Shown here piece after piece: positions 3,468 to 20,356 of a stretch of DNA of 39,861 bases (its first letter is position 1; each line of letters opens with the position of its first letter). Source of the DNA: a virus; the IMG/VR virus record IMGVR_UViG_3300048583_000181, positions 1-39,861 of that record; one strand, given 5' to 3'. Position numbers and translations under genes: made by a program. Under the pieces are notes generated by a model. That model was not told the origin of the DNA and did not search any database. It saw only the letters and a list, made by a program, of their open reading frames with translations.

Positions 3468-3731
3468 AGGTGGATATGCCAGTTAATATCCGCCCTCGTT
3501 AACCCCCCTCTCCGGGTCTTACCACCCCCCCTCTTTCTAAGCCATTAGCCGTTGCCTGCCCGCCGATTAAGTGTTCAATCGACGCGTTCAATAATAAAGG
3601 TAGTAGTTATGGATTATTCCGCCTTGACACGGTTTCGGGGAATAGGGGTTGACATTCAGTCGATTAACCTAATTGGCGAAACGACTCGGGTTAGTTTTGG
3701 TTAGGTAATTTTGTTGCTTGGCCCTAGATAG

Positions 3732-3819
3732 CCCGACGTTGGCTTGTGGCGGGGAGAATTATTTTCGGGGGTGTAGTGCCCCAAACTGGTCAAGGCGTTC
3801 ACGGGGCAACGTCGGGCGT
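3732..3819. other. 88-nt element closed by an 11-bp perfect long-range stem
   Basis: GCCCGACGTTG (3732..3742) is complementary to CAACGTCGGGC (3809..3819), followed by GTTTTGG. An internal GGGG/CCCC hairpin is present. No ORF covers the element. Confidence 0.3.
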
Positions 3820-3930
3820 TTTGGGGGTATAAGGTTTTAACCAATTTGGTAACTGAGCGGCAATCAAATCAGGTTGGCACGAATCTTGCAACGCGCGCGG
3901 GCGGGCGCGCAGCGGATATGGCCGGGCAAT

Positions 3931-3964
3931 GCGGGGTGGTGGTGGCCGGGGATTAGTGCAACGG
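3931..3964. repeat. Direct repeat unit A, containing the 19-mer CCGGGGATTAGTGCAACGG
   Basis: The 19-mer at 3946..3964 is identical to 4014..4032, giving a 68-bp period. The flanks GCGGGGTGG... are similar. Confidence 0.9.
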
Positions 3965-3997
3965 GGCGACCAGCCGATGATCGGGCAGTGGGGTGGC

Positions 3998-4032
3998 GCG
4001 GGGGTGGCGCAATCCGGGGATTAGTGCAACGG
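3998..4032. repeat. Direct repeat unit B, containing the 19-mer CCGGGGATTAGTGCAACGG
   Basis: Identical 19-mer at 4014..4032. Confidence 0.9.
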
Positions 4033-4068
4033 AGCCGCGTCTGTCCGGAAAATGGGGCAAAGCAATAA

Positions 4069-4098
4069 TGTTGCGCCAAACACCCTATCTACGTTCTA
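4069..4098 (+). promoter_or_regulatory. Candidate plus-strand promoter: TTGCGC-N18-TCTAAT
   Basis: TTGCGC at 4069..4074 and TCTAAT at 4093..4098 (5/6 match to TATAAT). It points into an ORF-free, G-run-rich stretch. Confidence 0.3.
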
Positions 4099-4120
4099 AT
4101 ATTTTTTTTTGAGATTAGAA
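4094..4120. other. AT-rich island containing a 7-bp inverted repeat
   Basis: TTCTAAT (4094..4100) and ATTAGAA (4114..4120) flank a T9 run. This is the only strongly AT-rich patch in a GC-rich non-coding region. Confidence 0.6.
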
Positions 4121-4248
4121 CCAGCACGATTATTGTAAGATGGGTAGGGAAGGGGGGGTGGCAGAAATCCGGGGATAACGCCACCCCTATGCCACCCTAT
4201 CGCCACCCCCGGCCATATCACCCGATGATCGGGGGCAATCGGCATAGA

Positions 4249-4296
4249 GGGATTGGGGGGCGGGGGGAATAGGGGCAAAATAGGGGCGCTAGGGGG
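4249..4296 (+). other. Dense G-run cluster (potential G-quadruplex motif)
   Basis: Six G3-G6 runs separated by 1-7 nt: GGGattGGGGGGcGGGGGGaataGGGGcaaaataGGGGcgctaGGGGG. A second cluster lies at 4142..4158. Confidence 0.5.
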
Positions 4297-4321
4297 TTTC
4301 TAGCGCCATTTGCCACATGGT

Positions 4322-4352
4322 ATGGGGGGTAGCGGCACCCCATGCCGGTTTT
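4322..4352 (+). terminator. Terminator-like hairpin on the plus strand
   Basis: ATGGGG (4322..4327) pairs with CCCCAT (4338..4343), followed by GCCGGTTTTCG. Another hairpin, GGCGCTAG/CTAGCGCC, lies at 4285..4307. Confidence 0.3.
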
Positions 4353-4406
4353 CGCGTCCTACGGCCATCGTCGGGGGTTTTGGCACAAACGGGGAACACC
4401 GAGGAT

Positions 4407-4436
4407 AAAAAAAACCCCCGGCGCGATGGCCGGGGG
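4407..4436 (-). terminator. Rho-independent terminator of the small minus-strand cassette
   Basis: CCCCCGGC (4415..4422) pairs with GCCGGGGG (4429..4436). On the minus strand it is followed by a U8 run (A8 at 4407..4414), 30 nt after the stop at 4467. Confidence 0.75.
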
Positions 4437-4466
4437 CGATGACTGCCGGGGATGATCGGGGGCGGG

Positions 4467-4727
4467 TTACTGGTGGCGGACATCCCCCACGCCAATCGGG
4501 GGCGATAGCGGCGCGGGGTTGTGGATGGCCAGCCATGCTGTGCAATCGGCGATCATCGCCGCGTAGTCGCGGCGCGGGGGGTTGTCAGTCCATTGCGCGA
4601 CACGGACGGTTAGATCGGATTTCCGCAATCCACGAATTTTCATTCCGGCGGACATAATGCGGCATTGGCCGCGTAGCTGTGCGACGCGGAAAATATCGAT
4701 ATTTTCGGGGGCGATTAGGCTGGGCAT
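4467..4727 (-). CDS. Hypothetical protein (86 aa)
   Basis: ORF with the conserved TAGGGAGTCCGCC leader directly before the ATG, and a strong terminator downstream. Confidence 0.6.
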   Translation of the reverse strand: MPSLIAPENIDIFRVAQLRGQCRIMSAGMKIRGLRKSDLTVRVAQWTDNPPRRDYAAMIADCTAWLAIHNPAPLSPPIGVGDVRHQ

Positions 4728-4747
4728 GGCGGACTCCCTAATTAGAC

Positions 4748-4775
4748 AAAAAACCGGGGGGATTGTTCCCCCCGG
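4748..4775 (-). terminator. Rho-independent terminator or attenuator hairpin just upstream of the RBS of 4467..4727
   Basis: 9-bp stem CCGGGGGGA/TCCCCCCGG with a 4-nt loop, then U6 on the minus strand (A6 at 4748..4753). The TAGGGAG RBS follows about 10 nt later. Confidence 0.65.
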
Positions 4776-4789
4776 TCAGGTGTTAGTCG

Positions 4790-4818
4790 ATTATCGCGGC
4801 GGGTGTCAATCCCGCCAA
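4790..4818 (-). promoter_or_regulatory. Candidate sigma70-like promoter: TTGGCG-N17-GATAAT
   Basis: On the minus strand, TTGGCG is at 4818..4813, the spacer is 17 nt, and GATAAT is at 4795..4790. The element overlaps an ATTGACACCC word that recurs at 3358 and 5086. Confidence 0.35.
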
Positions 4819-5012
4819 AACAATCGCCAAAACAACGGGCGATAAGTCGGAGCGGGGGTTTGACGTTGCGGTTTTGGCGCAACGTCAAAATTGATCGTTG
4901 GAAACTGGCGCAACGCCCGATCGCCGAAGTTTTCGGCCCTGATGATCGGCAATAATTCGGCATGAGTTAACCGGGGGCGTTGGCGCATTAAATTATTCAA
5001 AACACTAGGCAT
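4806..5012 (-). CDS. Hypothetical protein (68 aa); coding status uncertain
   Basis: Has the same TAGGGAGTCCGC leader and MPS start as 4467..4727. However, the body contains a perfect 12-bp palindrome (4859..4889) and repeated TGGCGCAAC words. Confidence 0.4.
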   Translation of the reverse strand: MPSVLNNLMRQRPRLTHAELLPIIRAENFGDRALRQFPTINFDVAPKPQRQTPAPTYRPLFWRLFWRD

Positions 5013-5032
5013 AAAGCGGACTCCCTAGATAG

Positions 5033-5063
5033 AAAAATGCCGGGGCAAATTGTTGCCCCGGCA
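5033..5063 (-). terminator. Terminator or attenuator hairpin just upstream of the RBS of 4806..5012
   Basis: 11-bp stem TGCCGGGGCAA/TTGCCCCGGCA with a 4-nt loop, then U5 on the minus strand. The TAGGGAG RBS follows. Confidence 0.6.
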
Positions 5064-5136
5064 TGGTAGGTAACAACGAATTGCGGGGGTGTCAATCCGC
5101 CCAGTGCAGCCCAGTGGCGTCGCAATCTAAATGCGG

Positions 5137-5169
5137 AAAAACCCGCTAGGGATTGCCTAGCGGGTTTTT
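5137..5169. terminator. Bidirectional rho-independent terminator
   Basis: AAAAACCCGCTAGG (5137..5150) pairs with CCTAGCGGGTTTTT (5156..5169). It lies 20 nt after the stop of 5190..5750. Confidence 0.75.
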
Positions 5170-5189
5170 CTGCCCGATTGCAATAGGCG

Positions 5190-5750
5190 TCAACCGATAC
5201 CCAGTGCCGACAACATTGCGCCCGTATCGACCGACGAAGTTTTCGGCGCGGGGCGCAATTCGGCCATAATCGCGGCGATGGCCGGCTCCCGGCGCAATGC
5301 CAACTGTTCCGCGCGAGTTTTCGCGTCATAAATCGCGCGAGTTTTCGCGGCCATATCATCGGGGATCGGCAGCTTCTGGGCGGTAGCGGCATTGACCAGA
5401 AACTGGTGAAACGCCCGATAGATAATGCCCGAAACAGGAGCCGAGCCATCGCCCGACGACCGCTGCGACCAGTCACCCGCAATCAATGCGTCGGCAACGT
5501 CCTGCATCGCGGCCATTTTGTCAGCGGGGGCGGCGGGCAGCCCGTCGTCGTTCAGCGACATTGCCGCCGCGTCGGCAATTTTCTGTTTCAGCCCATGCAT
5601 CATTGCCGCCGCGCGGATATCCGCCGACAATGCCGCCGCGTTGACGGTGAATGAACCAGCGCCCGTGACGTTAAATGTCATAACCTCCCCGTCAATGACG
5701 GTGGTAATGACGCGGGCGCGTTTCGTTTCGACTTTCGTTTCTTTTGCCAT
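5190..5750 (-). CDS. Hypothetical protein (186 aa); paralog of 9163..9771
   Basis: Blocks shared with 9163..9771: HGxxQKxxD, an (A/I)AG(E/D)WS block, and the C-terminal SVDTxxxLxxLGxG. GTAGGGAGTC lies upstream of the ATG. Confidence 0.8.
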   Translation of the reverse strand: MAKETKVETKRARVITTVIDGEVMTFNVTGAGSFTVNAAALSADIRAAAMMHGLKQKIADAAAMSLNDDGLPAAPADKMAAMQDVADALIAGDWSQRSSGDGSAPVSGIIYRAFHQFLVNAATAQKLPIPDDMAAKTRAIYDAKTRAEQLALRREPAIAAIMAELRPAPKTSSVDTGAMLSALGIG

Positions 5751-6034
5751 GATAGTGACTCCCTACATATCGCCCCATTAGTGGCCGGGATTGGCGGGGG
5801 CGATGGCCCCTAGTGTCATGGCCAGCCGATAGTGTCAATATACCCCCGGCAATATATTTTCATATACCCTAGGCCAATCGCCCGCCCGCCCCCCGTGTGA
5901 CCGATGACGGCGACTGGGCATTGGGGGCGGCATGGCATATTGACAACGCGTGACACGCGCACGCGCGCGTGTAGCAAAAACCGTGCCAACCGACGACCGG
6001 CTGACGATTGATTGCCGATTGTTAATGTCGATAT

Positions 6035-6050
6035 CCGGTTGCACTAATCC
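6035..6050. repeat. Third, inverted copy of the GGATTAGTGCAAC core; it overlaps the early promoter -35 box
   Basis: The reverse complement of CCGGTTGCACTAATCC is GGATTAGTGCAACCGG, which matches the core of the 3946 and 4014 repeats. Confidence 0.85.
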
Positions 6051-6067
6051 TAAATGGCCGATAGGAT
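6039..6067 (+). promoter_or_regulatory. Predicted early promoter: TTGCAC-N17-TAGGAT
   Basis: TTGCAC at 6039..6044, spacer exactly 17 nt, TAGGAT at 6062..6067. It lies about 45 nt upstream of the first plus-strand ORF, in the divergent intergenic region. Confidence 0.5.
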
Positions 6068-6114
6068 GGCCAATCGCCGGGGATGATCGCGGCGATAATT
6101 TGGGGACTTAACCG

Positions 6115-6294
6115 ATGAAAATCTATAAGTGGTATTTCGGGGCTTCTGAAGGCATTTGCCGATCAACCGAAGCCGCAATGAAAGAAAAATCAATGCAATA
6201 CGCCCGCTCCTGCCTGGCAAAAGGTATCCCACTTTCGGAAATTAAGGCTTGTTATACCCCCGTGCAAATGCGCCAACCTCCAGTATCGATGTAA
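6115..6294 (+). CDS. Hypothetical early protein (59 aa); its TAA stop abuts hammerhead 1
   Basis: Manual translation: MKIYKWYFGASEGICRSTEAAMKEKSMQYARSCLAKGIPLSEIKACYTPVQMRQPPVSM. GGGGA lies 9 nt upstream. It falls below the 60-aa cutoff of the ORF track. Confidence 0.55.
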   Translation: MKIYKWYFGASEGICRSTEAAMKEKSMQYARSCLAKGIPLSEIKACYTPVQMRQPPVSM

Positions 6295-6346
6295 GGACGA
6301 AACCCGCTTCAGCGGGTCATCCGGTAACGCCGGGTCTGATGAGTCC
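6295..6346 (+). ncRNA. Type II hammerhead self-cleaving ribozyme (HHR1)
   Basis: Stem II is open: GGAC 6295..6298 pairs with GUCC 6343..6346. GAAA core at 6299..6302. Stem III: CCGC/GCGG with loop UUCA, plus the C6303-G6316 and A6302-U6317 pairs. The cleavage triplet is GUC, ending at 6318. Stem I is 6 bp (6319..6324 with 6330..6335) with loop UAACG. CUGAUGA at 6336..6342. A G10.1-C11.1 pair is present. Confidence 0.9.
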
Positions 6347-6692
6347 ATCAGTTACTGCTATTAGGGAGCCGATCACGCCAACCCCGCACAACCAGCGTAA
6401 AACCCCCGGCACACAGGGGGTAAAACTCAACGCCGATGAAGAAGATGCTATTCGCCTAATCTGCCCAGCGGTCTATCGTCAATTTGTCTTATACGACTCA
6501 CCATCAAAAGTCGCCCTGCAGTCAAAAGCGCTCGAAATAACCGAAGCCCGGCTGGTCGAATTGATCGAACGGCACAAGGAAAAACAAGCCCGCCACACGA
6601 CCCAGCTCTACGGCCCCAATCACCCGCAGTCTTGGGAAAACCTCTATTCCCCCGCAATCAAAATGCTGCGGGAAATGGGGATTGCGAAGTAA
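6339..6692 (+). CDS. Hypothetical early protein; start codon uncertain
   Basis: The frame is open from 6249, but the 5' part overlaps HHR1. The first in-frame ATG (6339) is the AUG of the CUGAUGA core. A TAGGGAG word (6362..6368) is followed by in-frame ATC and ACG but no ATG. The TAA stop (6690..6692) abuts HHR2. Confidence 0.55.
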   Translation: MSPSVTAIREPITPTPHNQRKTPGTQGVKLNADEEDAIRLICPAVYRQFVLYDSPSKVALQSKALEITEARLVELIERHKEKQARHTTQLYGPNHPQSWENLYSPAIKMLREMGIAK

Positions 6693-6750
6693 GGACGAAA
6701 CGGGCAGCGGTATTGCCCGTCCAGTGGTATTTTCCACTGCTGATGAGTCC
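6693..6750 (+). ncRNA. Type II hammerhead self-cleaving ribozyme (HHR2)
   Basis: GGAC 6693..6696 pairs with GUCC 6747..6750. GAAAC at 6697..6701. Stem III: GGGCA/UGCCC with loop GCGGUAU. The GUC triplet ends at 6721. Stem I: CAGUGG/CCACUG with loop UAUUUU. CUGAUGA at 6740..6746. Confidence 0.92.
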
Positions 6751-6770
6751 AAACACAGGGAGATAGCACA

Positions 6771-6968
6771 ATGACCACCTTTCGCGCAGTTCTGATAAAG
6801 ACAGAAAACAATACGGGCAAGACAACCGGCGAAGTCGTCACGTCGGTTCTCAAGACCGTCGGGCCATGGCAACAGACTTTGATCGGCGCGATCGAAGCTT
6901 GCAAGGCAACGTGGAAACGGGATTTTCCGCAGACCAACTACCGCGAAGCCCAGGATTTTTTCTGGTAG
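6771..6968 (+). CDS. Hypothetical early protein (65 aa)
   Basis: ORF track entry. GGGAG lies 9 nt upstream of the ATG. The ORF sits between HHR2 and HHR3. Confidence 0.7.
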   Translation: MTTFRAVLIKTENNTGKTTGEVVTSVLKTVGPWQQTLIGAIEACKATWKRDFPQTNYREAQDFFW

Positions 6969-7007
6969 TCCAGCGATGATCTTACCCAAAGCCACCACGT
7001 TCAATAA

Positions 7008-7059
7008 AAGCGAAACCGGCGTCAGCCGGTCGGTCGGTATCGCCGGCCCTGATGAGCTT
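7008..7059 (+). ncRNA. Type II hammerhead self-cleaving ribozyme (HHR3)
   Basis: AAGC 7008..7011 pairs with GCUU 7056..7059. GAAAC at 7012..7016. Stem III: CGGC/GCCG with loop GUCA. The GUC triplet ends at 7031. Stem I is 6 bp (7032..7037 with 7043..7048, including one G-U pair) with loop UAUCG. CUGAUGA at 7049..7055. Confidence 0.88.
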
Positions 7060-7090
7060 AATCGTCGGTTTTCCACCAGGAGTCAATTTA

Positions 7091-7318
7091 ATGGCTAAGA
7101 ATATCGCAAAGTCAAAAGGCAACACCGCCCGTCGCTCGGCGCAACGCAATAAAGGGCTGCCCGGCGGAGTCGTCAATCTTCACGGGAAGAACACCTTGCC
7201 CAGCCTCGAAAAGATGCTGGCCAATTCCACTTCTCTCTCCGACCTCGTTCGCAAACTTCGCCTTGCCCGGCGTTGGAAAGTCTTGCCAAAAGCAGCAACC
7301 GGGCGGGGGATGGAATAA
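7091..7318 (+). CDS. Hypothetical small basic protein (75 aa)
   Basis: I moved the start to the ATG at 7091 (MAKNIAKSKGNTARR), with AGGAG 7 nt upstream. The track start at 7052 is the AUG inside the HHR3 core. Confidence 0.75.
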   Translation: MAKNIAKSKGNTARRSAQRNKGLPGGVVNLHGKNTLPSLEKMLANSTSLSDLVRKLRLARRWKVLPKAATGRGME

Positions 7319-7521
7319 TGAAGACTTATTGGGGCGCCCGTATCCGCCGGGCTGATTCCAAATTCATTCGCCTTCTCCGCAGCCTGCCCGTCACATATCG
7401 CTATGTCTGGGCAGTTCGCATTGGCAATGACTGGACAACCTACTGCGTCATCGCCCGCCACAATCCATACTCCGCGCGCGGAAAGGCCCGGCAGTATGAT
7501 CTGACAAATCCGCTTGTTTGA
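7318..7521 (+). CDS. Hypothetical protein (67 aa)
   Basis: TAATG stop/start overlap with the previous gene. Begins MKTYWGARIRR. Confidence 0.7.
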   Translation: MKTYWGARIRRADSKFIRLLRSLPVTYRYVWAVRIGNDWTTYCVIARHNPYSARGKARQYDLTNPLV

Positions 7522-7537
7522 TTGGAAGGAAATCACT

Positions 7538-7774
7538 ATGCCCCGTCCTCTCTACCGCATCGCCGCTGACATTCGCGCAGACTGGCAACCGCTCTCCCCG
7601 CACGCCAGACCCTACATCATGGCGATGGGGGAGCTCGTCAACATCCACGACAGTTATGGCGCTGATTCGGCCAAATCAATCGTCCTCTACTTCCTCTCCA
7701 ACGCCGGGACATGGAAAGGGCAAACCGCCCGGACAATCAAGGCGGAATTGAAATCTCTTGCAGGAGTTCGTTAA
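7538..7774 (+). CDS. Hypothetical protein (78 aa)
   Basis: ATG at 7538 preceded by GGAAGGAAA. Begins MPRPLYRIAADIRADW. Confidence 0.75.
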   Translation: MPRPLYRIAADIRADWQPLSPHARPYIMAMGELVNIHDSYGADSAKSIVLYFLSNAGTWKGQTARTIKAELKSLAGVR

Positions 7775-8098
7775 ATGACGGAAATCGTAATCAACAGCTG
7801 CTATGGCGGCTTCGGGCTTTCCGATACAGCAATTCTCGAAATGCGAAAACTCGCCGGACATTGGGGGATTACCCCGTCCCTCTCCGTCGAAGCGCGTTGG
7901 GAAAATTATTTCCCCTCCCGCGATGTCAGTCGTGACTCGCCGATCCTTATTGCCGCCGTCAAAGCAATCGGCGGGAAGAAAGCATCTGGCCCCGGCGCCA
8001 GTCTCAAAATCGTCACCATCCCTGACGATGTGAAGTGGCAGATCGAAGATTATGATGGACTGGAATGGGTGGCAGAAGCCCATCGGATTTGGGGTTAA
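7775..8098 (+). CDS. Hypothetical protein (107 aa)
   Basis: ORF track entry, tightly packed after the previous stop. Confidence 0.8.
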   Translation: MTEIVINSCYGGFGLSDTAILEMRKLAGHWGITPSLSVEARWENYFPSRDVSRDSPILIAAVKAIGGKKASGPGASLKIVTIPDDVKWQIEDYDGLEWVAEAHRIWG

Positions 8099-8102
8099 TA
8101 AA

Positions 8103-8477
8103 ATGTCCAAGCCCAACACCCGCGAGGACGCAATCTTCCTCTCCCTCTGGCGGCGCGCGGGGCTTGACAACCCCCCGCCACCTATCACCCTCTCCAGCCA
8201 TTCCCTGGCAATCTCCGTCCGGGCGAAACTTTTCCGCGTCATCAAGCCCTACCGCGCTGGTCGGCTCGAGGACGCCGAATTGCTGATGGCCGCGGAAAAC
8301 TGGACAGTCGCCGTCAACGACTGCACAATCACCTTCGTCCGCAAAGTCACGCAAGCTGCAGCGGAAGAAATTGCCGCTCTGCTCGGCCTGACCGAAGCCG
8401 ATATTATGTCGCCGGAAGAAAAAGCTTCCGCCGATCGAATGGCGGCGATGCTCAGCAATCTTAAAGACAAGGAATAA
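8103..8477 (+). CDS. Hypothetical protein (124 aa)
   Basis: Internal ATG at 8103 (MSKPNTRED), directly after the upstream stop. Confidence 0.75.
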   Translation: MSKPNTREDAIFLSLWRRAGLDNPPPPITLSSHSLAISVRAKLFRVIKPYRAGRLEDAELLMAAENWTVAVNDCTITFVRKVTQAAAEEIAALLGLTEADIMSPEEKASADRMAAMLSNLKDKE

Positions 8478-8481
8478 AGCG

Positions 8482-8655
8482 ATGAAAAAGGAAAACATTA
8501 TCACGGGTAAACGAAGAGACAGTCTAACAGCCGAAGAAAAAAGGATATTGCGAAACGCTCTGCACACCGAAGCTTGTTTAAGCGGTAACTATACTGCAGG
8601 CACCGCTATTCGTGTTAAACTCGGCCTTGCCGCGCTTGCTTTTGAAAAGGAATAA
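8482..8655 (+). CDS. Hypothetical protein (57 aa)
   Basis: Manual translation: MKKENIITGKRRDSLTAEEKRILRNALHTEACLSGNYTAGTAIRVKLGLAALAFEKE. It fills the gap between neighbouring genes. Confidence 0.55.
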   Translation: MKKENIITGKRRDSLTAEEKRILRNALHTEACLSGNYTAGTAIRVKLGLAALAFEKE

Positions 8656-8659
8656 CTCC

Positions 8660-8977
8660 ATGCCCTCCTGGACTGCCCCCGGCAAATCCCCTGCCCTCTT
8701 CCCCGCCGCCTATGCAGAGGCTGTGCAAACAGCTGCGCGCGAAGAAGGCCGAGAAATCCCTCTTCCTTTTTTCCACACTTCCCACGACGCTGCCCGCGCT
8801 CGAGCAGAAGATTTTCGCTATTGGCGGTTTTCCCTTAGACATTTCACTTCTGGTCGCGGGTATGAAGTGGAAATTACCAAGTCGATCAAGACCAAAATCA
8901 TTCAAACGGATGACCTCTGGCGGGTTATGGTGATTGTGCGCCCGCGACTGGAACAGCTGCTCGCCGCACTCGATTAG
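8660..8977 (+). CDS. Hypothetical protein (105 aa)
   Basis: ATG at 8660 preceded by AAAAGGAA. Confidence 0.75.
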   Translation: MPSWTAPGKSPALFPAAYAEAVQTAAREEGREIPLPFFHTSHDAARARAEDFRYWRFSLRHFTSGRGYEVEITKSIKTKIIQTDDLWRVMVIVRPRLEQLLAALD

Positions 8978-9006
8978 GCGCGACTATCCCCGATCATACG
9001 GCCATC

Positions 9007-9046
9007 ATGCCGCCCCCGGTGACGTATCGGGGGCGGCATTATTATA
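9007..9046 (+). terminator. Rho-independent terminator
   Basis: 12-bp stem ATGCCGCCCCCG/CGGGGGCGGCAT with a 9-nt loop, followed by TATTATA. Confidence 0.65.
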
Positions 9047-9067
9047 CGCGGCGCGCGACATCGCCTA

Positions 9068-9096
9068 TTGCACCGCCCCTCGCCCTATGCGACTAT
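9068..9096 (+). promoter_or_regulatory. Candidate promoter: TTGCAC-N17-GACTAT, with a TG extension
   Basis: TTGCAC at 9068..9073 and TGCGACTATAAA at 9088..9099. It has the same -35 word as the early promoter. Confidence 0.4.
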
Positions 9097-9162
9097 AAAT
9101 AGGCCGTTCAAAACGGCCAAGGGCAACCCCGCCCCGCATCACCAGACACTGGAGACTTTTCA

Positions 9163-9771
9163 ATGGCAACCGAAACTGTCCGAACCCCCATCACCATGAC
9201 TGATGGCCGGGTCGTTGAATTTACCACCAAGCAAAAGCTCGTCAAGACCACTTCGATCGTCGATGGCGTCGTCAGCGTCCAGCTCGATTTCCGCAACGGC
9301 GCGACCCGCTCCTTCACCATCCCCGAAGCCATGATCCTGCAGTTCGCTGGTCACGGTGCCGAGCAGAAGCTCGGCGATGTCACCGCCGGTGAAGATACCG
9401 TCGAGGATGGCGTGGAAGCCCTCGATGATCTGATTGCCCGTCTCAACGCTGGCGAATGGTCGGTCAAGCGTCAGGCCGGTGCCTTCGCCGGTCAGTCCGT
9501 CCTCATCCAGGCCCTCTGCGAAGCGTCGGGCAAGCCGGTGGACGAAATCCGCGCTTACCTGTCCACCAAGACGGCGGCGGAAAAGACTGCCCTGCGCAAG
9601 ACCAATGCCCTCGCGCCGATCATCGCCCGCATCGAAGCGGCGAAGCCGAAGAAGGTTTCCACCGTCGATACCGCCTCGCTGCTTGCTGATCTCGGCGTCG
9701 GCCCGGCAGTCAATCCGGACGAGGACACTTCGGATCCGACGGCTGCCGTCACCGGCAAGCGCGGCAAGTAA
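9163..9771 (+). CDS. Hypothetical protein (202 aa); paralog of 5190..5750. Looks like a monocistronic unit.
   Basis: GGAGA RBS. Flanked by a terminator and promoter upstream and a terminator downstream. Shares motif blocks with 5190..5750. Confidence 0.85.
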   Translation: MATETVRTPITMTDGRVVEFTTKQKLVKTTSIVDGVVSVQLDFRNGATRSFTIPEAMILQFAGHGAEQKLGDVTAGEDTVEDGVEALDDLIARLNAGEWSVKRQAGAFAGQSVLIQALCEASGKPVDEIRAYLSTKTAAEKTALRKTNALAPIIARIEAAKPKKVSTVDTASLLADLGVGPAVNPDEDTSDPTAAVTGKRGK

Positions 9772-9788
9772 TCCCGCCCCCTGGGATA

Positions 9789-9844
9789 GAGGAGCGAAGT
9801 TCCCCGTAGTCGGCTCCCCTGCGATGCGCTGAGCGTCGCTCCTC
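9789..9844 (+). other. Structured 3' UTR element closed by a 9-bp stem
   Basis: GAGGAGCGA (9789..9797) pairs with TCGCTCCTC (9836..9844). It lies just upstream of the terminator. Confidence 0.3.
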
Positions 9845-9849
9845 CGAAG

Positions 9850-9885
9850 CCCCTGGCAGCCAAGTGTTGCCGGGGGTTTTTGTTT
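9850..9885 (+). terminator. Rho-independent terminator
   Basis: CCCCTGGCA pairs with TGCCGGGGG (one G-U pair), followed by TTTTTGTTT. Confidence 0.8.
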
Positions 9886-9903
9886 GGGGGCTGAATAAAC
9901 TAT

Positions 9904-9942
9904 TTGCAATCCCCGCGGGAATATGCCACTATATCCCCACGG
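9904..9942 (+). promoter_or_regulatory. Candidate promoter TTGCAA-N17-CACTAT, embedded in an imperfect CCGCGGG.../...CCCCACGG inverted repeat
   Basis: TTGCAA at 9904..9909 and CACTAT at 9927..9932. The arms CCGCGGGAATAT (9913..9924) and ATATCCCCACGG (9931..9942) pair at 10 of 12 positions. Confidence 0.4.
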
Positions 9943-9974
9943 TCAATCACGACCGCTTATCGGGAGCCACCTTA

Positions 9975-10511
9975 ATGACTGCACCAGCTATCGGTTTCGA
10001 CGACTTCCTCGCTTCCCTCGACGCAGCAATTGCGCCCGTCACAGCGAAGACCAAGCTCGAAGCTCGCAAAGACACCATCGCCAAACAGATGAAAGACCGG
10101 AAAGTCAGCGAACGGGAAAAAGCCTCTCTCCGCGACGAACTCTCCGCTATCTCCACTCAGATCGAAGAAATGCGCTGGCAGACCAAAGCCAACGTCGCGC
10201 TGATGGTCTATCAATCTTGCGCGTGTGGGCAGACTCATACATTCTTCGAACATCTCATGCGGCGACAGGTCACCGTCCAGCTCACCCCCAATTCGCCGAA
10301 GGTCGAACGCTGGCAACGGGTCGATCATCTACTGGCAGATTTCCCCAACGAAGTCATGTATCGCTTCCGTTCCGTTGCCCACTGTGCGACCTGCATCCCG
10401 CTGGCGGGATTCGACTTGGCAAATGGTAACGTCCGTATCGCCGACCAAGGCAATAACATCCACATCCCCCTGGCCGAGTTCATCGCCCAGATCAATGAGG
10501 ATAAACTCTAA
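9975..10511 (+). CDS. Hypothetical protein (178 aa) with a CxC...CxxC cysteine pattern
   Basis: ATG at 9975 preceded by GGGAG. Contains SCACGQTH and HCATCIP. Confidence 0.75.
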   Translation: MTAPAIGFDDFLASLDAAIAPVTAKTKLEARKDTIAKQMKDRKVSEREKASLRDELSAISTQIEEMRWQTKANVALMVYQSCACGQTHTFFEHLMRRQVTVQLTPNSPKVERWQRVDHLLADFPNEVMYRFRSVAHCATCIPLAGFDLANGNVRIADQGNNIHIPLAEFIAQINEDKL

Positions 10512-10693
10512 TGCCCCGTCCCAAGCACATCGACCCGCCAGTCGAATTCGTCGTCTCCATGCCGAAGTCCATCTTCGACGAGATGCAGACGAAACTTCAT
10601 TCCGAAGCCGTCAATCGTGTGCCAACTGGCCTGCGGTCAAAAGTCATCGCCCAACTCGTCCGTAACTGGATGGCCAACCAGAAGGGAAATTAA
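10511..10693 (+). CDS. Hypothetical small protein (60 aa), possibly a ribbon-helix-helix protein
   Basis: TAATG overlap with the upstream gene. The short beta-then-helix pattern (EFVVSMPKSIFDEMQTKL) only loosely resembles an RHH fold. Confidence 0.6.
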   Translation: MPRPKHIDPPVEFVVSMPKSIFDEMQTKLHSEAVNRVPTGLRSKVIAQLVRNWMANQKGN

Positions 10694-10694
10694 A

Positions 10695-11018
10695 ATGCTT
10701 CAACCCGAAATCCTCACCCGCGCTCGAGAAGCGTTGATTAAAGCCAGCGACAATCTACCGGAAGGTTACATCAGTGACATTCGGGCCGGTGACTGGGATC
10801 ATTCCGAAGGCATTGTTTCTTGCCTACACTTCGCCGAAGGGCTGAAGTTTCCACTTTCCTCAATCCAACCACCGACACCACGTTTGGCCGCTGCGCGGCA
10901 ATGGGCAGCGGGGAGACTGGAATCAAATGGGCTTTCCGGCGAAGCTGCAGATGTATTGGCTGGGAAGATGGATTGGCAACCGCTGGTTGTAGCCTTCCTG
11001 GCCGGGGCAAGTGCATGA
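10695..11018 (+). CDS. Hypothetical protein (107 aa)
   Basis: ATG at 10695, 2 nt after the upstream stop. Confidence 0.75.
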   Translation: MLQPEILTRAREALIKASDNLPEGYISDIRAGDWDHSEGIVSCLHFAEGLKFPLSSIQPPTPRLAAARQWAAGRLESNGLSGEAADVLAGKMDWQPLVVAFLAGASA

Positions 11019-11040
11019 CGCGGTGCAACGAGGAGGGAGA

Positions 11041-11244
11041 ATGATGACGGAACCGATGGCTTTTCCAATGGGAAATCCGACGCACGGCGGCTATAACGGC
11101 ATGACCTTGCGCGACTATTTTGCGAGGCAGATTATCGCGGCGATTATCACGAGCCGCGACGGGCATACGCCGACGGCATGGGCGCAGGCGGCTTACGACG
11201 TTACTGACGCCATGCTCGCCGCCCGCCAGGAGCCTTCCGCATGA
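11041..11244 (+). CDS. Hypothetical protein (67 aa)
   Basis: ATG at 11041 preceded by GAGGAGGGAGA. Confidence 0.7.
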   Translation: MMTEPMAFPMGNPTHGGYNGMTLRDYFARQIIAAIITSRDGHTPTAWAQAAYDVTDAMLAARQEPSA

Positions 11245-11420
11245 CCGCGCTCAACAAGGCGGGGCTGGTGGCGCTGGCAACGAACCGCGAGCGGGCGCAA
11301 GAGTTAGCCAAAACCATGCGATGCAACTGTGACCTTGATAACTGGGAGCCAGAGCGTTCGACCGGCCACAGTTGGGTTTGCCGTATCCACAAGGCCGCAA
11401 TCGCAGCAGGCCAGCCATGA
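11241..11420 (+). CDS. Hypothetical protein (59 aa)
   Basis: Manual translation: MTALNKAGLVALATNRERAQELAKTMRCNCDLDNWEPERSTGHSWVCRIHKAAIAAGQP. ATGA overlaps at both ends. Confidence 0.6.
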   Translation: MTALNKAGLVALATNRERAQELAKTMRCNCDLDNWEPERSTGHSWVCRIHKAAIAAGQP

Positions 11421-11764
11421 CCGCGCCGACTTATGCCCAGATCGAGCAGGCAGAGCGCGACCTGTTGAGCTTGCGATGGGCCTATCTCAAGCGTTGGGGC
11501 TGGGAGCATACTTGCCACAACCCCGGCTCATATTGGCTTTGGCGGCGGGACTGGACTTCTGACGACGAAGCAGCACTGGCGCGCTGGCATGAACGAAACG
11601 CCAAGCGTGAAGCTGAGCGTATTGAGCACGGCCACCCCTACACACCGAATAGCCCAACTCCGCCGCAGCCTTACGGCATGGCATGTGTTCCAATGGACAT
11701 TGCAATTCAGATGACGTTGCGGACGCTCGACGATCGGCCAGAACTAGGAGACTGTGATGACTGA
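11417..11764 (+). CDS. Hypothetical protein (115 aa)
   Basis: ATGA overlap with the upstream gene. Begins MTAPTYAQIEQAERD. Confidence 0.75.
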   Translation: MTAPTYAQIEQAERDLLSLRWAYLKRWGWEHTCHNPGSYWLWRRDWTSDDEAALARWHERNAKREAERIEHGHPYTPNSPTPPQPYGMACVPMDIAIQMTLRTLDDRPELGDCDD

Positions 11765-12110
11765 CGCCATGACGACGCCGATGAGTGATGAACTGATTCG
11801 CCGCTTGCGAACGCCGCATCGTCGAGCTGCCCGAATGATCGTGTTCGCATTCCTGGCAGCGCGGTTTGATCATGCACGAATTGACATCGAGCTCGACAAC
11901 AAACCTGCCAATTTTGAAGATTTCGACAGAGGTTGGGCAACGGTTTCGGGCGTCGAGGTGCCCTTTCGCATCGTGATTCGACCCGACGCGCTACGCGGGT
12001 TGCGATTAGTCGGTTTCGCCTTTGTACGATCAGCGAAGCAGCTGAGCCCGGCCCAAAGATTGGGGCTGTCTCTCATCGCTGACAGCAGAATGGCGAGGCC
12101 GACCGCGTGA
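11757..12110 (+). CDS. Hypothetical protein (117 aa)
   Basis: GGAG lies 6 nt upstream of the ATG at 11757. Confidence 0.75.
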   Translation: MTDAMTTPMSDELIRRLRTPHRRAARMIVFAFLAARFDHARIDIELDNKPANFEDFDRGWATVSGVEVPFRIVIRPDALRGLRLVGFAFVRSAKQLSPAQRLGLSLIADSRMARPTA

Positions 12111-17946: not shown

Positions 17947-19638
17947 ATGATTATGCCAGACGGCCTGCCCACCAGCCGTATCATGATCGTGCAAGAGTGC
18001 CCTGGAGAGCCAGAACACCAAATCGGTCGAGCTCTTCAGGGCCTCAATGGCATTGAATTTAACAAAATGCTTACCGAAGCTGGTATCATGCGGTCGGAGT
18101 GCTTTGCCACTTCTGTCATCCGCACGCGCATCTCAATGAACGATATCAACACCCAAATCTGCCACCGCAAGAAAGACGCCACCGATCGCCACTCCCCCTA
18201 TTTCGACAAGCTCGTAACTCAGGAGTTTCAAGATGGAGCATCCCTCCTCTTCAAAGAAATTGCTCTCGTCAAACCCGACGTTATTATTGCTTTGGGAAAT
18301 GGGGCATTGTTTGCGCTCACTGGAAAATGGGGAATTAAGCAGTGGCGAGGTAGCCAGCTTCCTTTCTCGACTGGAGACGGCGACAGCGCAGTATCGTGCA
18401 CTGTTATTCCCACCTACGACCCCGGCTGGATCAAGCGAATGTGGAGTGAGCGGTCAATCGCAGTGCAAGACCTCCGACGGGCAAAAGGGGTTAGGGACAC
18501 TGGATTTCATCAACCGCTGGATGGCGGACAGAGTAGAAGCCGAAAAGACCCCATTGTTGGGCGGGGATATAATTTCATTCTCCGGCCAAGCGTCGAAACC
18601 GTATTGTCTTGTCTGCAAGCGCTCCAACGAACTGTCGAGCTGTCTCCGACGCGATTGTCAGTGGATATTGAAACCCGCGCAGGGCACACCGCTTGCATTG
18701 GAATAGCTTGGTCGAAATCCGATGCAATCTGTATTCCGCTGATGTGTGTCGAGAGCCCGGCGGGCTATTGGCTGGAAGAAGAAGAAACCGCGATCAGCTT
18801 TGCGCTGTATAAACTCCTCACCCACCCAAATGCCGAAGTTATCGGACAGAATTTCGCCTACGATGCGCAGTATTTCTACCGCCATCTTCACTTCATCCCC
18901 AACCTCAAACGCTGCACGATGATCGCTCAGCATACGATGTTCTCCAACCTTCCTAAAGGTCTAGATTACCTGTCGAGCATGTATTGTGACGAGCACATTT
19001 ACTGGAAAGACGAGTCCAAAAACTGGGATCCAAAAGTCGGGGAAGATCAGCTTTGGGCGTATAACTGCAAAGACTGCGTGATCACTTACGAAGTCGATGA
19101 GAAACAGCAAAAGTCCATCGACGAACTTGGCTTGCGGAAAGTCCACGATTTCCAACAAGCTCTTTGGTGGCCAGTTCTTGAGACCATGAACCGCGGTATT
19201 CGGGTTGAGCAAGCTGGAAAAGCTCGCCTCGCCCAGGAGCTATTTGCTGCCATTCAAGAACGCGAAGCCTGGATTATCCGTGTCATCGGACGCCCACTGA
19301 ACCCAAAATCGCCAAAGCAAATGGCAGATTTTTTCTACCGGGAAATGGCGCAGCGACCAGTTATCAACCGCGCGACGGGCAGCCCAACTTGCAACGATGC
19401 TGCGCTGACAAAGATCGGGGAGCGGGAGCCGCTATTACTCCCTTTGATCAACGTCATATCCGAATTGCGAAGCCTCGGTGTTTTCCTGTCAACCTTTGTC
19501 CAAGCCCCACTCGACATCGACAGCCGGATGCGGTGCTCCTTCAACATCGCCGGGACAGTCACCTACCGCTTTTCGTCATCCAGCAACGCTTTTGACTCCG
19601 GCATGAATTTGCAGAATATCCCGAAGGGAGACGATTGA
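17947..19638 (+). CDS. DNA polymerase A family, part I: UDG-like N-terminal domain, 3'-5' exonuclease, and the N-terminal part of the polymerase
   Basis: UDG family-4-like QECPGEPE. Exo I is VDIETRA, Exo II is GQNFAYDAQY, Exo III is YNCKDCV. The ORF ends ...MNLQNIPKGDD*, immediately before where motif A is expected. Confidence 0.85.
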   Translation: MIMPDGLPTSRIMIVQECPGEPEHQIGRALQGLNGIEFNKMLTEAGIMRSECFATSVIRTRISMNDINTQICHRKKDATDRHSPYFDKLVTQEFQDGASLLFKEIALVKPDVIIALGNGALFALTGKWGIKQWRGSQLPFSTGDGDSAVSCTVIPTYDPGWIKRMWSERSIAVQDLRRAKGVRDTGFHQPLDGGQSRSRKDPIVGRGYNFILRPSVETVLSCLQALQRTVELSPTRLSVDIETRAGHTACIGIAWSKSDAICIPLMCVESPAGYWLEEEETAISFALYKLLTHPNAEVIGQNFAYDAQYFYRHLHFIPNLKRCTMIAQHTMFSNLPKGLDYLSSMYCDEHIYWKDESKNWDPKVGEDQLWAYNCKDCVITYEVDEKQQKSIDELGLRKVHDFQQALWWPVLETMNRGIRVEQAGKARLAQELFAAIQEREAWIIRVIGRPLNPKSPKQMADFFYREMAQRPVINRATGSPTCNDAALTKIGEREPLLLPLINVISELRSLGVFLSTFVQAPLDIDSRMRCSFNIAGTVTYRFSSSSNAFDSGMNLQNIPKGDD

Positions 19639-19639
19639 A

Positions 19640-20356
19640 ATGGATATGCCCAACATTCGCAAGCTATTCATTCCCGACCCCGGCTATTCTTTCTTCGACA
19701 TCGACCTTGACTCCGCCGATCTCCGTATCGTCGTCTGGGAGTCCGATTGCAAAGAAATGAAGGCCATGTTTGCAGAAGGGAAAAAGCCGTATGTCGAAGT
19801 CGCCAAAGAATACTACCGAGACCCCTCCATCGACAAGCATCACCCTTCCTATAAAATCTTTAAATCCCTCTGCCACGGAACTAACTACCTCGGCAAAGCC
19901 CGCGGCATCGCCCCGCGAGTTGGCCTTGTTGTCGCTGATGTCGAGCGTATCCAAAACTGGTATTTTGGTAAGTTCCCAGAAATCAAGCAATGGCAAGACA
20001 ATATCATCTCGTCCATCAATCGGCAAAAGTTTATCACAAACGTATTCGGTTATCGCATCAATGCTTTCGACCGGATTGACGACAATCTATATCGAGCCTT
20101 CGTCGCCTGGGTGCCGCAGTCCACGGTCGCTTGTCTTATCAACCGAGGTTATTACAACATCTATAAAAATCTCCGCGAAGTGCAGATCCTGCTCCAAGTC
20201 CATGACTCTCTGGCTGGGCAGTATGAAACGCATCTCGGAGATTGGGCCACTCGGAGAATTGTTGAAGAATGCTCGGTGCCGCTGCCATATGCCGAACCGC
20301 TGATTATTCCGGTCGGCATTTCCAGTAGTAATCTTAGTTGGGGAGATTGCAGGTGA
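19640..20356 (+). CDS. DNA polymerase A family, part II (motifs A, B and C)
   Basis: Begins MDMPNIRKLFIP... Motif A is FFDIDLDSADLRIV, motif B-like is YKIFKSLCHGTNYLG, and motif C is LLQVHDSL. It starts 1 nt after the part I stop, in a different frame. Confidence 0.85.
   Translation: MDMPNIRKLFIPDPGYSFFDIDLDSADLRIVVWESDCKEMKAMFAEGKKPYVEVAKEYYRDPSIDKHHPSYKIFKSLCHGTNYLGKARGIAPRVGLVVADVERIQNWYFGKFPEIKQWQDNIISSINRQKFITNVFGYRINAFDRIDDNLYRAFVAWVPQSTVACLINRGYYNIYKNLREVQILLQVHDSLAGQYETHLGDWATRRIVEECSVPLPYAEPLIIPVGISSSNLSWGDCR

Follow-up and report, generated by a model that had tools for sequence, protein, structure and literature searches.

A type II hammerhead ribozyme, very probably self-cutting, between two small early genes of a metagenome phage

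In vitro cleavage has been shown for type II hammerhead ribozymes that occur in clusters and flank single prophage genes (Perreault et al. 2011, PMC3088659). The clusters of A. tumefaciens, A. caulinodans, and C. scindens do so during in vitro transcription, and the triple hammerhead of A. tumefaciens also cleaves in vivo in E. coli (PMC3088659). Three type II hammerheads of D. vulgaris, found by cyPhyRNA-seq, cleave both in vivo and in vitro (PMC8782182). In the majority of type II hammerheads, at least four pairs between loop I and the 3' tail form a pseudoknot that is critical for fast cleavage; about 40% of all hammerheads use a pseudoknot, which means that none is required for the class (PMC3088659). 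The same study proposed that long phage transcripts are cut into single-gene mRNAs by the clustered copies, and called the function unproven; a 2019 review likewise treats transcript processing as proposed and the function as unproven (PMC6765202). The subject here is HHR2, the middle one of three type II hammerheads (HHR1, HHR2, and HHR3) in IMG/VR virus record IMGVR_UViG_3300048583_000181. This record is a complete contig of the Joint Genome Institute (JGI) from a metagenome phage of roughly 40 kb, and its 39,861 bases, all of which were analysed, are called the window. Judged from its sequence, HHR2 is very probably a real self-cutting RNA. The reading favored here, and held to be probable, is that it is a genuine type II hammerhead, the middle of three, that cuts an early transcript into single-gene messages.

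The closest described parallel is the A. tumefaciens triple flanking ardA (PMC3088659), which likewise consists of three intercistronic type II copies on one strand that bracket two small phage genes. The genes bracketed by HHR1–3 are instead unannotated, with no ArdA match, and they lie on a phage contig rather than in an integrated prophage. HHR2 also differs from that triple in having a stem II of 4 base pairs (bp) and no pseudoknot between loop I and the tail. The Rfam family Hammerhead_II (RF02276, clan CL00010) has the same topology and core, and is the best Rfam match of all three copies. In printed alignments its consensus pairs two positions of stem II and conserves a 3' tail, AGCCaAAg, whereas stem II of HHR1–3 is 4 bp long and the tail is not conserved. 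The D. vulgaris copies also lie beside hypothetical or phage-like genes, with two of them close together (PMC8782182); their 3' fragments measure at least 39 nucleotides (nt), and the ribozyme part of the HHR2 3' fragment is 29 nt long.

Other relatives are more distant in function. The tandem hammerheads of viroids, satellite RNAs, and retrozymes likewise excise defined RNAs with 5'-OH and 2',3'-cyclic phosphate ends. They process multimeric replication intermediates to circularised units, whereas the units set off by HHR1–3 are different protein-coding cistrons of a DNA phage. Insulators of the RiboJ type are engineered from a type III satellite-RNA hammerhead with an added hairpin. Placed upstream of a ribosome-binding site (RBS), they remove the upstream RNA and leave a message led by a 5'-OH hairpin, which gives context-independent expression. 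HHR2 would follow the same insulator logic, but it is natural, is of type II, and would also shape the 3' end of the upstream message. Three hammerheads bracketing two small unannotated genes are a phage arrangement known since 2011, and HHR2 is a well-documented, ordinary case of it.

Read base by base, HHR2 (6692/6693 to 6750, + strand) is a complete type II hammerhead with every core nucleotide present (Table 1). From 5' to 3' it consists of GGAC, GAAA, hairpin III, C17, hairpin I, CUGAUGA, and GUCC. Stem I and stem III are each closed by a loop and the molecule ends in an open stem II, which makes it the type II permutation. Stem III is built from seven Watson-Crick pairs between ACGGGCA (6700–6706) and UGCCCGU (6714–6720) around the loop GCGGUAU, with an optional eighth pair, G6707-U6713. 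Stem I is built from six, between CAGUGG (6722–6727) and CCACUG (6734–6739) around the loop UAUUUU (6728–6733). Stems II, I, and III thus hold 4, 6, and 7 perfect Watson-Crick pairs. The pairs that adjoin the core, G6747-C6696 in stem II, C6722-G6739 (C1.1-G2.1) in stem I, and A6700-U6720 in stem III, are all standard, with no mispair. The features by which the class is recognised, namely the conserved core with a base other than G at H17 (listed in PMC3088659), three helices, and covariation, are all found in HHR2.

The initial annotation of this DNA had described the ribozyme base by base, and all of its sequence statements prove correct on direct reading. It had the ribozyme begin right after the stop codon of the upstream gene, here called gene A. 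This is borne out with one refinement. An A precedes GGAC in 145 of the 148 family copies listed in the scan described below (and in 200 of 211 in a second family count), so A6692, the last base of the stop codon, is best counted as the first nucleotide of HHR2. The RBS GGGAG that had been placed 7 nt past the ribozyme is indeed there (6758–6762), followed by the ATG of the next gene, gene B, at 6771.

A deliberately loose descriptor of type II hammerheads was run on both strands of the 39,861 bases; it specified stems of at least 4, 4, and 2 bp, the core CUGANGA and GAAA, and an H17 that is not G. Exactly three matches were found, all on the + strand and within 770 nt: 6295–6346 (HHR1), 6693–6750 (HHR2), and 7008–7059 (HHR3). 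The chance expectation from 300 dinucleotide-preserving shuffles is a mean of 0.03 matches per window. A relaxed descriptor gave no further hammerheads in the window. As an isolated RNA of 60 nt, HHR2 has the hammerhead as both its minimum-energy and its centroid fold (−24.8 kcal/mol, z = −3.0), and none of 200 shuffles folds as stably. As in the clustered phage hammerheads of PMC3088659, the three copies lie on the coding strand within this short span and flank genes A and B.

HHR2 belongs to a large family. IMG/VR was scanned with the letters of the core and stem II only (GGACGAAAC...GTC...CTGATGAGTCC), leaving stems I and III unconstrained. The scan found at least 120 viral contigs, with 148 matches listed; the family fractions given in this text, of 148, 136, or 128, are among these listed matches. 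Both hairpins, at least 4 bp long and flush with the core, are present in 142 of the 148 matches listed, compared with 15 of 2960 (0.5%) when the variable part is shuffled. The stems are diverse, with 79 stem I and 58 stem III hexamers among the 148 listed. H17 is C in all but one of these (147 of 148 listed), and loop I of the family is usually UNNNG. In an alignment of 87 sequences (A1), 10 of the 12 modelled pairs of stems I and III have changed on both sides, comprising all 6 of stem I and 4 of the 6 of stem III; the rows of A1 were preselected for hairpins, and the unbiased test is the hairpin count of 142 in 148. Stem II covaries as well among co-resident family members (for example GGUC/GACC, GACC/GGUC, and AAGC/GCUU). 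In bacteria, the same exact pattern is found in 36 stretches of species-representative genomes that span many phyla.

A covariance model, R1, was built solely from the sequences of other viral contigs. Applied to the window, it scored 68.1 bits at 6294–6352, 60.8 bits at 6692–6756 (E = 2.2e-15), and 51.2 bits at 7007–7065. With filters off, the next-best score in the window was 10 bits, for a site that is not a hammerhead, and no other ribozymes or additional hammerheads were found there by R1 or the relaxed descriptor.

The surroundings of the family members resemble those of HHR2. An upstream open reading frame (ORF) ends no more than 60 nt before the ribozyme in 125 of 136 copies listed, and a Shine-Dalgarno site, start codon, and ORF follow within 120 nt in 124 of 136 listed, with a median distance of 24.5 nt from the ribozyme. 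Co-resident copies are nearly always on one strand, with a median spacing of 543 nt, and the sense-strand bias is nearly absolute. Long one-strand arrays reach 13 R1 matches (L100) and 11 (L085), with up to 12 descriptor matches per contig. In the IMG/VR array contigs L100, L085, L097, L078, L060, and L001, hammerheads occur roughly every 250–750 nt. In such arrays the ribozymes bracket nearly every small gene of a block.

An ortholog is present in Logan SRR31920100 (L131), where gene A, at 64% amino-acid identity, is followed directly by TAA and a hammerhead that scores 61.8 bits. This hammerhead differs from HHR2 at four positions, two in loop III and two in one stem I pair. The stem I difference is a compensatory change: the fourth pair, 6725-6736, is U-A in HHR2 and C-G in L131. 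The loop I sequence UAUUUU is retained, and the loop III substitutions leave stem III intact. A third hammerhead, in L133, has the same UAUUUU loop on an unrelated stem and also abuts a TAA. Loci with relatives of the ORF at 7775–8098 (L121–L130) contain no hammerhead. The identification of 6693–6750 as a type II hammerhead, made in the initial annotation, is upheld by its sequence and structure, by a covariance model built independently of it, and by an ortholog with a compensatory change.

Table 1. Features of the HHR2 locus, with positions counted from the first base of the window.
Feature	Positions	Strand	Evidence or remark
Gene A stop codon TAA	6690–6692	+	adjoins HHR2 5' edge
Unpaired conserved A 5' of stem II	6692	+	doubles as final base of the TAA stop
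Stem II 3' strand GGAC (11.4–11.1; C11.1 = 6696)	6693–6696	+	pairs with 6747–6750
Core G12 A13 A14	6697–6699	+	sequence; invariant in alignment A1
Stem III hairpin, A15.1 (6700) to U16.1 (6720)	6700–6720	+	sequence, fold
C17 and C1.1, predicted scissile bond between them	6721..6722	+	hammerhead consensus position
Stem I hairpin	6722–6739	+	sequence, fold; all 6 pairs covary in family
Core C3 U4 G5 A6 U7 G8 A9 (CUGAUGA)	6740–6746	+	sequence; invariant in alignment A1
Stem II 5' strand GUCC (10.1–10.4; G10.1 = 6747)	6747–6750	+	sequence, fold
HHR1, type II hammerhead	6294..6351	+	R1 68.1 bits, Rfam 29.2 bits, descriptor
HHR3, type II hammerhead	7007..7059	+	R1 51.2 bits, Rfam 32.9 bits, descriptor
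Gene A, about 105 amino acids	6375..6692	+	stop TAA abuts HHR2; two close homologs, P0003 and P0002
RBS GGGAG (6758–6762) and gene B (ATG 6771 to TAG 6968), 65 amino acids	6758..6968	+	
Gene C	ATG 7091 to 7318	+	preceded by AGGAG, 3' of HHR3

Self-cleavage is expected of HHR2 by analogy with experiments on related ribozymes. As the polycistronic early transcript emerges, hairpins III and I would form, and GUCC (6747–6750) would then close the 4-bp stem II with GGAC (6693–6696). Catalysed by the core, the 2'-OH of C6721 would attack the neighboring phosphate, so that C6721 would keep a 2',3'-cyclic phosphate and C6722 a 5'-OH. The products, held solely by the 4-bp stem II, would part. The gene A message would end 29 nt past its stop, with the G+C-rich stem III hairpin at its 3' end, and the gene B message would open with the stem I hairpin, its 5'-OH flush in that hairpin and its RBS 19 nt on. 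Combined with cuts at HHR1 and HHR3, this would yield a gene A RNA of 403 nt (6319–6721) and a gene B RNA of 310 nt (6722–7031).

The proposed effect is that of a natural intercistronic insulator, which would uncouple translation and decay of the neighboring early genes. A 5'-OH buried in a hairpin and a hairpin end carrying a cyclic phosphate should resist exonucleases and the 5'-end-dependent entry of ribonuclease (RNase) E. The consequences for stability and translation are expected from what RNase E and decay dependent on the 5' end do in bacteria generally, and the insulator role is likewise deduced.

Several points weigh against this reading. With 20–30 nt of flanking sequence on each side, the minimum-energy fold of HHR2 is not the hammerhead, and the ensemble is diffuse. 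RF02276, its best Rfam match, scores it at 24.1 bits (E = 0.0019, in a 75-nt slice), below the gathering cut-off of 37, which is an operational threshold of one model and not a biological criterion. Rfam searches in E-value mode did not report HHR2 in the whole window or in 151 nt. HHR2 lacks the pseudoknot that is critical for fast cleavage in those tested type II hammerheads that have one. Among complete GenBank genomes the closest relative is the 40,250-bp phage MW202489.1; a search of it with filters off found no hammerhead, which means that phages of this type can do without the element. Finally, a biological role for the hammerheads of bacteria and phages is still considered unproven (PMC6765202).

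The Rfam scores are low for the whole cluster. At gathering thresholds there is no Rfam match anywhere in the window, and the RF02276 scores of HHR3 (32.9 bits), HHR1 (29.2 bits), and HHR2 all fall below 37, so routine annotation would miss all three copies. In whole-window Rfam searches HHR2 was lost to the speed filters. The initial annotation had proposed a covariance-model search as a check on HHR2, and the outcome depends on the model: R1 recognises it with the E-value given above, while RF02276 gives it only the score just cited. Its description of HHR2 as the best-formed hammerhead holds for folding, since the minimum-energy fold of HHR2 is the active fold and that of HHR1 is not. It does not hold for scores, since both R1 and Rfam rate HHR1 higher.

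The pseudoknot was examined across the subfamily. With a tail site 9–12 nt downstream, loop I of HHR2 can form no more than 3 Watson-Crick pairs, or 6 pairs if G-U is counted. A loop I/3'-tail pseudoknot is not enriched in the 128 subfamily members listed, which equal the background of permuted tails; HHR1–3 were also examined. A pseudoknot of this kind as the tertiary contact of the subfamily was rejected for want of enrichment over permuted tails. By inference, the contact that would allow fast cleavage at physiological Mg2+ is probably between loop I and the open stem II, and of a non-Watson-Crick kind. This subfamily, with a 4-bp stem II and free of the pseudoknot, is probably under-counted by standard annotation.

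The position of the stop codons raises the most probable alternative, in which HHR2 is gated by translation. A terminating ribosome would unfold the ribozyme, cleavage would depend on translation of gene A, and HHR2 would be a switch and not a constitutive cutter. A ribosome at the UAA of 6690–6692 would cover GGAC, G12–A14, and the start of stem III. Of 136 family copies listed, 31 have the upstream stop abutting the ribozyme and 28 have it overlapping, 59 in all, and in 96 the stop lies no more than 3 nt away. The overlapping stops are formed by TA and the first G of GGAC, giving TAG. Such stops sit at the innermost positions possible for a stop codon in the ribozyme sequence, and TAA stands directly before GGAC in HHR1, HHR2, the L131 ortholog, and L133. 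However, compact phage genomes are expected to pack tightly, and with the conserved A ahead of GGAC any of TAA, TGA, and TAG arises easily. The stop is also more than 3 nt away in about 30% of copies, and the annotated stop of gene B lies 39 nt before HHR3. A translation-gated switch is considered unlikely. It is just as doubtful that the stop codon in the edge of the ribozyme is a functional design by which translation of gene A times the downstream message, and not a result of compaction.

A different form of control may be present in HHR1 and part of the family. HHR1 starts at the last A of the TAA that ends a gene of 59 amino acids (6115–6294), with C17 at 6318, the core at 6336–6342, and the stem II strand GUCC at 6343–6346; its stem II strands, GGAC/GUCC, are identical to those of HHR2. 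The tail of HHR1, AUCAG (6347–6351), is complementary to its catalytic core, and in the minimum-energy fold a tail-core hairpin (6336–6351) replaces the active fold. Among type II hammerheads of viral loci L001–L120, AUCAG, usually as CAUCAG, occurs just past stem II in 38 of 211, compared with about 3 expected. This tail is complementary to CUGAU(G), and its position shifts by 1–6 nt between members with the complementarity kept. The tail covaries with N7 of the core: U7 goes with AUCAG in 36 cases and GUCAG in 7, and C7 with GUCAG in 11 and AUCAG in 2 (Fisher p = 1.2e-5, for sequences that are not fully independent).

About a quarter of family members, HHR1 included, have such a covarying, core-sequestering hairpin. 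From sequence comparison it looks like a conserved anti-ribozyme element or an element for refolding after cleavage. If translation gating were real, the hairpin would be a second layer of conformational control. PMC3088659 makes no mention of an anti-core tail hairpin. HHR2 and HHR3 are without the AUCAG anti-core tail. In HHR3, stem II is AAGC/GCUU, C17 is at 7031, and the core is at 7049–7055, followed by AGGAG and gene C.

Comparison of gene order leads to a second alternative, slightly less probable than translation gating, in which the ribozymes mark, and may promote, recombination junctions of early-gene cassettes, with any effect on RNA being secondary. The approximately 20 nt of core and stem II sequence that the copies share may serve as recombination homology. 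The window and L131 have in common gene A, HHR2, and the MKTYWG gene (7319 in the window), while the genes that flank the gene A-HHR2 unit in L131 are unrelated, and HHR1, HHR3, and their adjoining genes are missing there. In the window, the switches in gene content relative to L131 were noted at 6347–6362 and 6751–7318, with homology resuming at 7319. Similarly, L026/L037 compared with L038/L083/L090/L113/L115, and L056 compared with L114, have near-identical ribozymes and conserved downstream sequence, with unrelated sequence upstream; gene content changes exactly at the hammerhead. The identities of flanked genes are not constant in the earlier study either (Perreault et al., PMC3088659), and the lack of a hammerhead in MW202489.1 fits as well. 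These are, however, only three independent comparisons. The covariation and invariant core show selection on RNA and not on DNA homology, and the nearly absolute sense-strand bias also argues against a boundary role that is primary. Both roles are compatible with each other.

The identical stem II strands of HHR1 and HHR2 would permit a third arrangement, which is very unlikely. On the 403-nt gene A RNA, the half left by HHR1 at the 5' end (GUCC, stem I, and core) and the half left by HHR2 at the 3' end (GGAC, GAAA, and stem III) could reassemble a hybrid hammerhead. Self-ligation of the ends, or an RtcB-type ligase, would then produce a circular mRNA, as in viroids and retrozymes. Circular or spliced RNA was raised as an idea for clustered phage hammerheads by Perreault et al., who sought such products and found none (PMC3088659). 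The stem II of HHR3 differs from that of HHR2, which means that the gene B RNA could not circularise in this way, and stem II also varies among co-resident copies of other contigs. A 4-bp helix would be weak for joining ends.

The least probable alternative, that HHR2 is an inactive look-alike arising by chance or a decayed, non-cleaving copy, draws on its score below the Rfam gathering threshold, on the lack of a recognisable pseudoknot, and on the inactivity of some consensus-matching candidates in Perreault et al. (PMC3088659), but it must contend with three copies on one strand within 770 nt where 0.03 are expected per window, with an R1 E-value of 2e-15, with L131 changes that are all structure-neutral, and with the absence of any core deviation or mispair by the core.

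The proteins encoded in the window include a terminase, a PD-(D/E)XK nuclease, an AAA ATPase, a ParB-methylase, a UDG-exonuclease-PolA protein, and one that carries a DUF3987 (primase-associated) domain. HHR1–3 sit amid the first small genes of a rightward early operon that leads to the replication genes, in the order 59-amino-acid gene, HHR1, gene A, HHR2, gene B, HHR3, and gene C. Gene A, gene B, gene C, and the genes beside them are all without a Pfam or PHROG match. A profile search with a three-sequence alignment of gene A against 1.84 billion representatives found 8 small unannotated proteins as remote relatives, with no Pfam domain. Gene A and gene B have no matches in IMG/VR, and the gene A profile has none among JGI metagenome contigs. 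In a set of 5.8 billion proteins, the only relative of gene B is itself. A megablast of 5000–9000 against GenBank phages gave no close relative. The PolA of the window is 56% identical to that of MW202489.1.

Hammerhead cores complicate gene calling at this locus. Gene A begins with ACG (6375–6377) where its relatives in L131 and L132 have ATG; its RBS, AGGGAG, lies at 6363–6368, and no canonical start codon follows it. The JGI call for gene A (117 amino acids) begins at the ATG of 6339–6341, which is the AUG in the CUGAUGA core of HHR1 and is in frame. The mechanical ORF for gene C similarly begins at the AUG of the HHR3 core (7052). The AUG inside CUGAUGA thus misleads gene callers. Past the TAG of gene B (6966–6968), the same frame reaches a TAA at 7005–7007 that abuts HHR3. 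Read-through of the TAG would extend gene B by 12 residues (SSDDLTQSHHVQ), to the stop position that is usual in the family. TAG is the rarest stop codon among the long ORFs of the window.

Two further observations concern other parts of the window. The gene for the family A DNA polymerase is broken into two ORFs in different frames, 17947–19638 (UDG, exonuclease, and the N-terminal part of the polymerase) and 19640–20356. The second polymerase ORF of this region (17947–20356) has a GGGAG RBS just before its ATG, overlapping the TGA of the first. The polymerase of MW202489.1 is a single gene of 780 amino acids. On the minus strand, strong terminator-like hairpins with U-tracts are found at 5064–5037, 4777–4752, 4437–4414, and 4307–4285; in 3500–12000 there are 22 terminator-like sites, compared with 10.6 expected. 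The minus-strand cluster (4285–5064) probably marks the end of a leftward transcription unit, next to where the early rightward operon begins.

All three copies escape standard Rfam annotation, yet one exact-core search finds the subfamily in at least 120 viral contigs. The more unusual points lie at the level of the family, in the stop codon within the edge of the ribozyme and the covarying hairpin that sequesters the core. With its three ribozymes, its pair of very small genes, and in L131 a relative where the middle ribozyme alone is kept, the window offers a clean test case for the role of the hundreds of hammerheads in bacteria and phages (PMC6765202). If HHR2 and its two sisters are active, a DNA phage would define the ends of its individual early messages by RNA catalysis, and not by host RNases or terminators.

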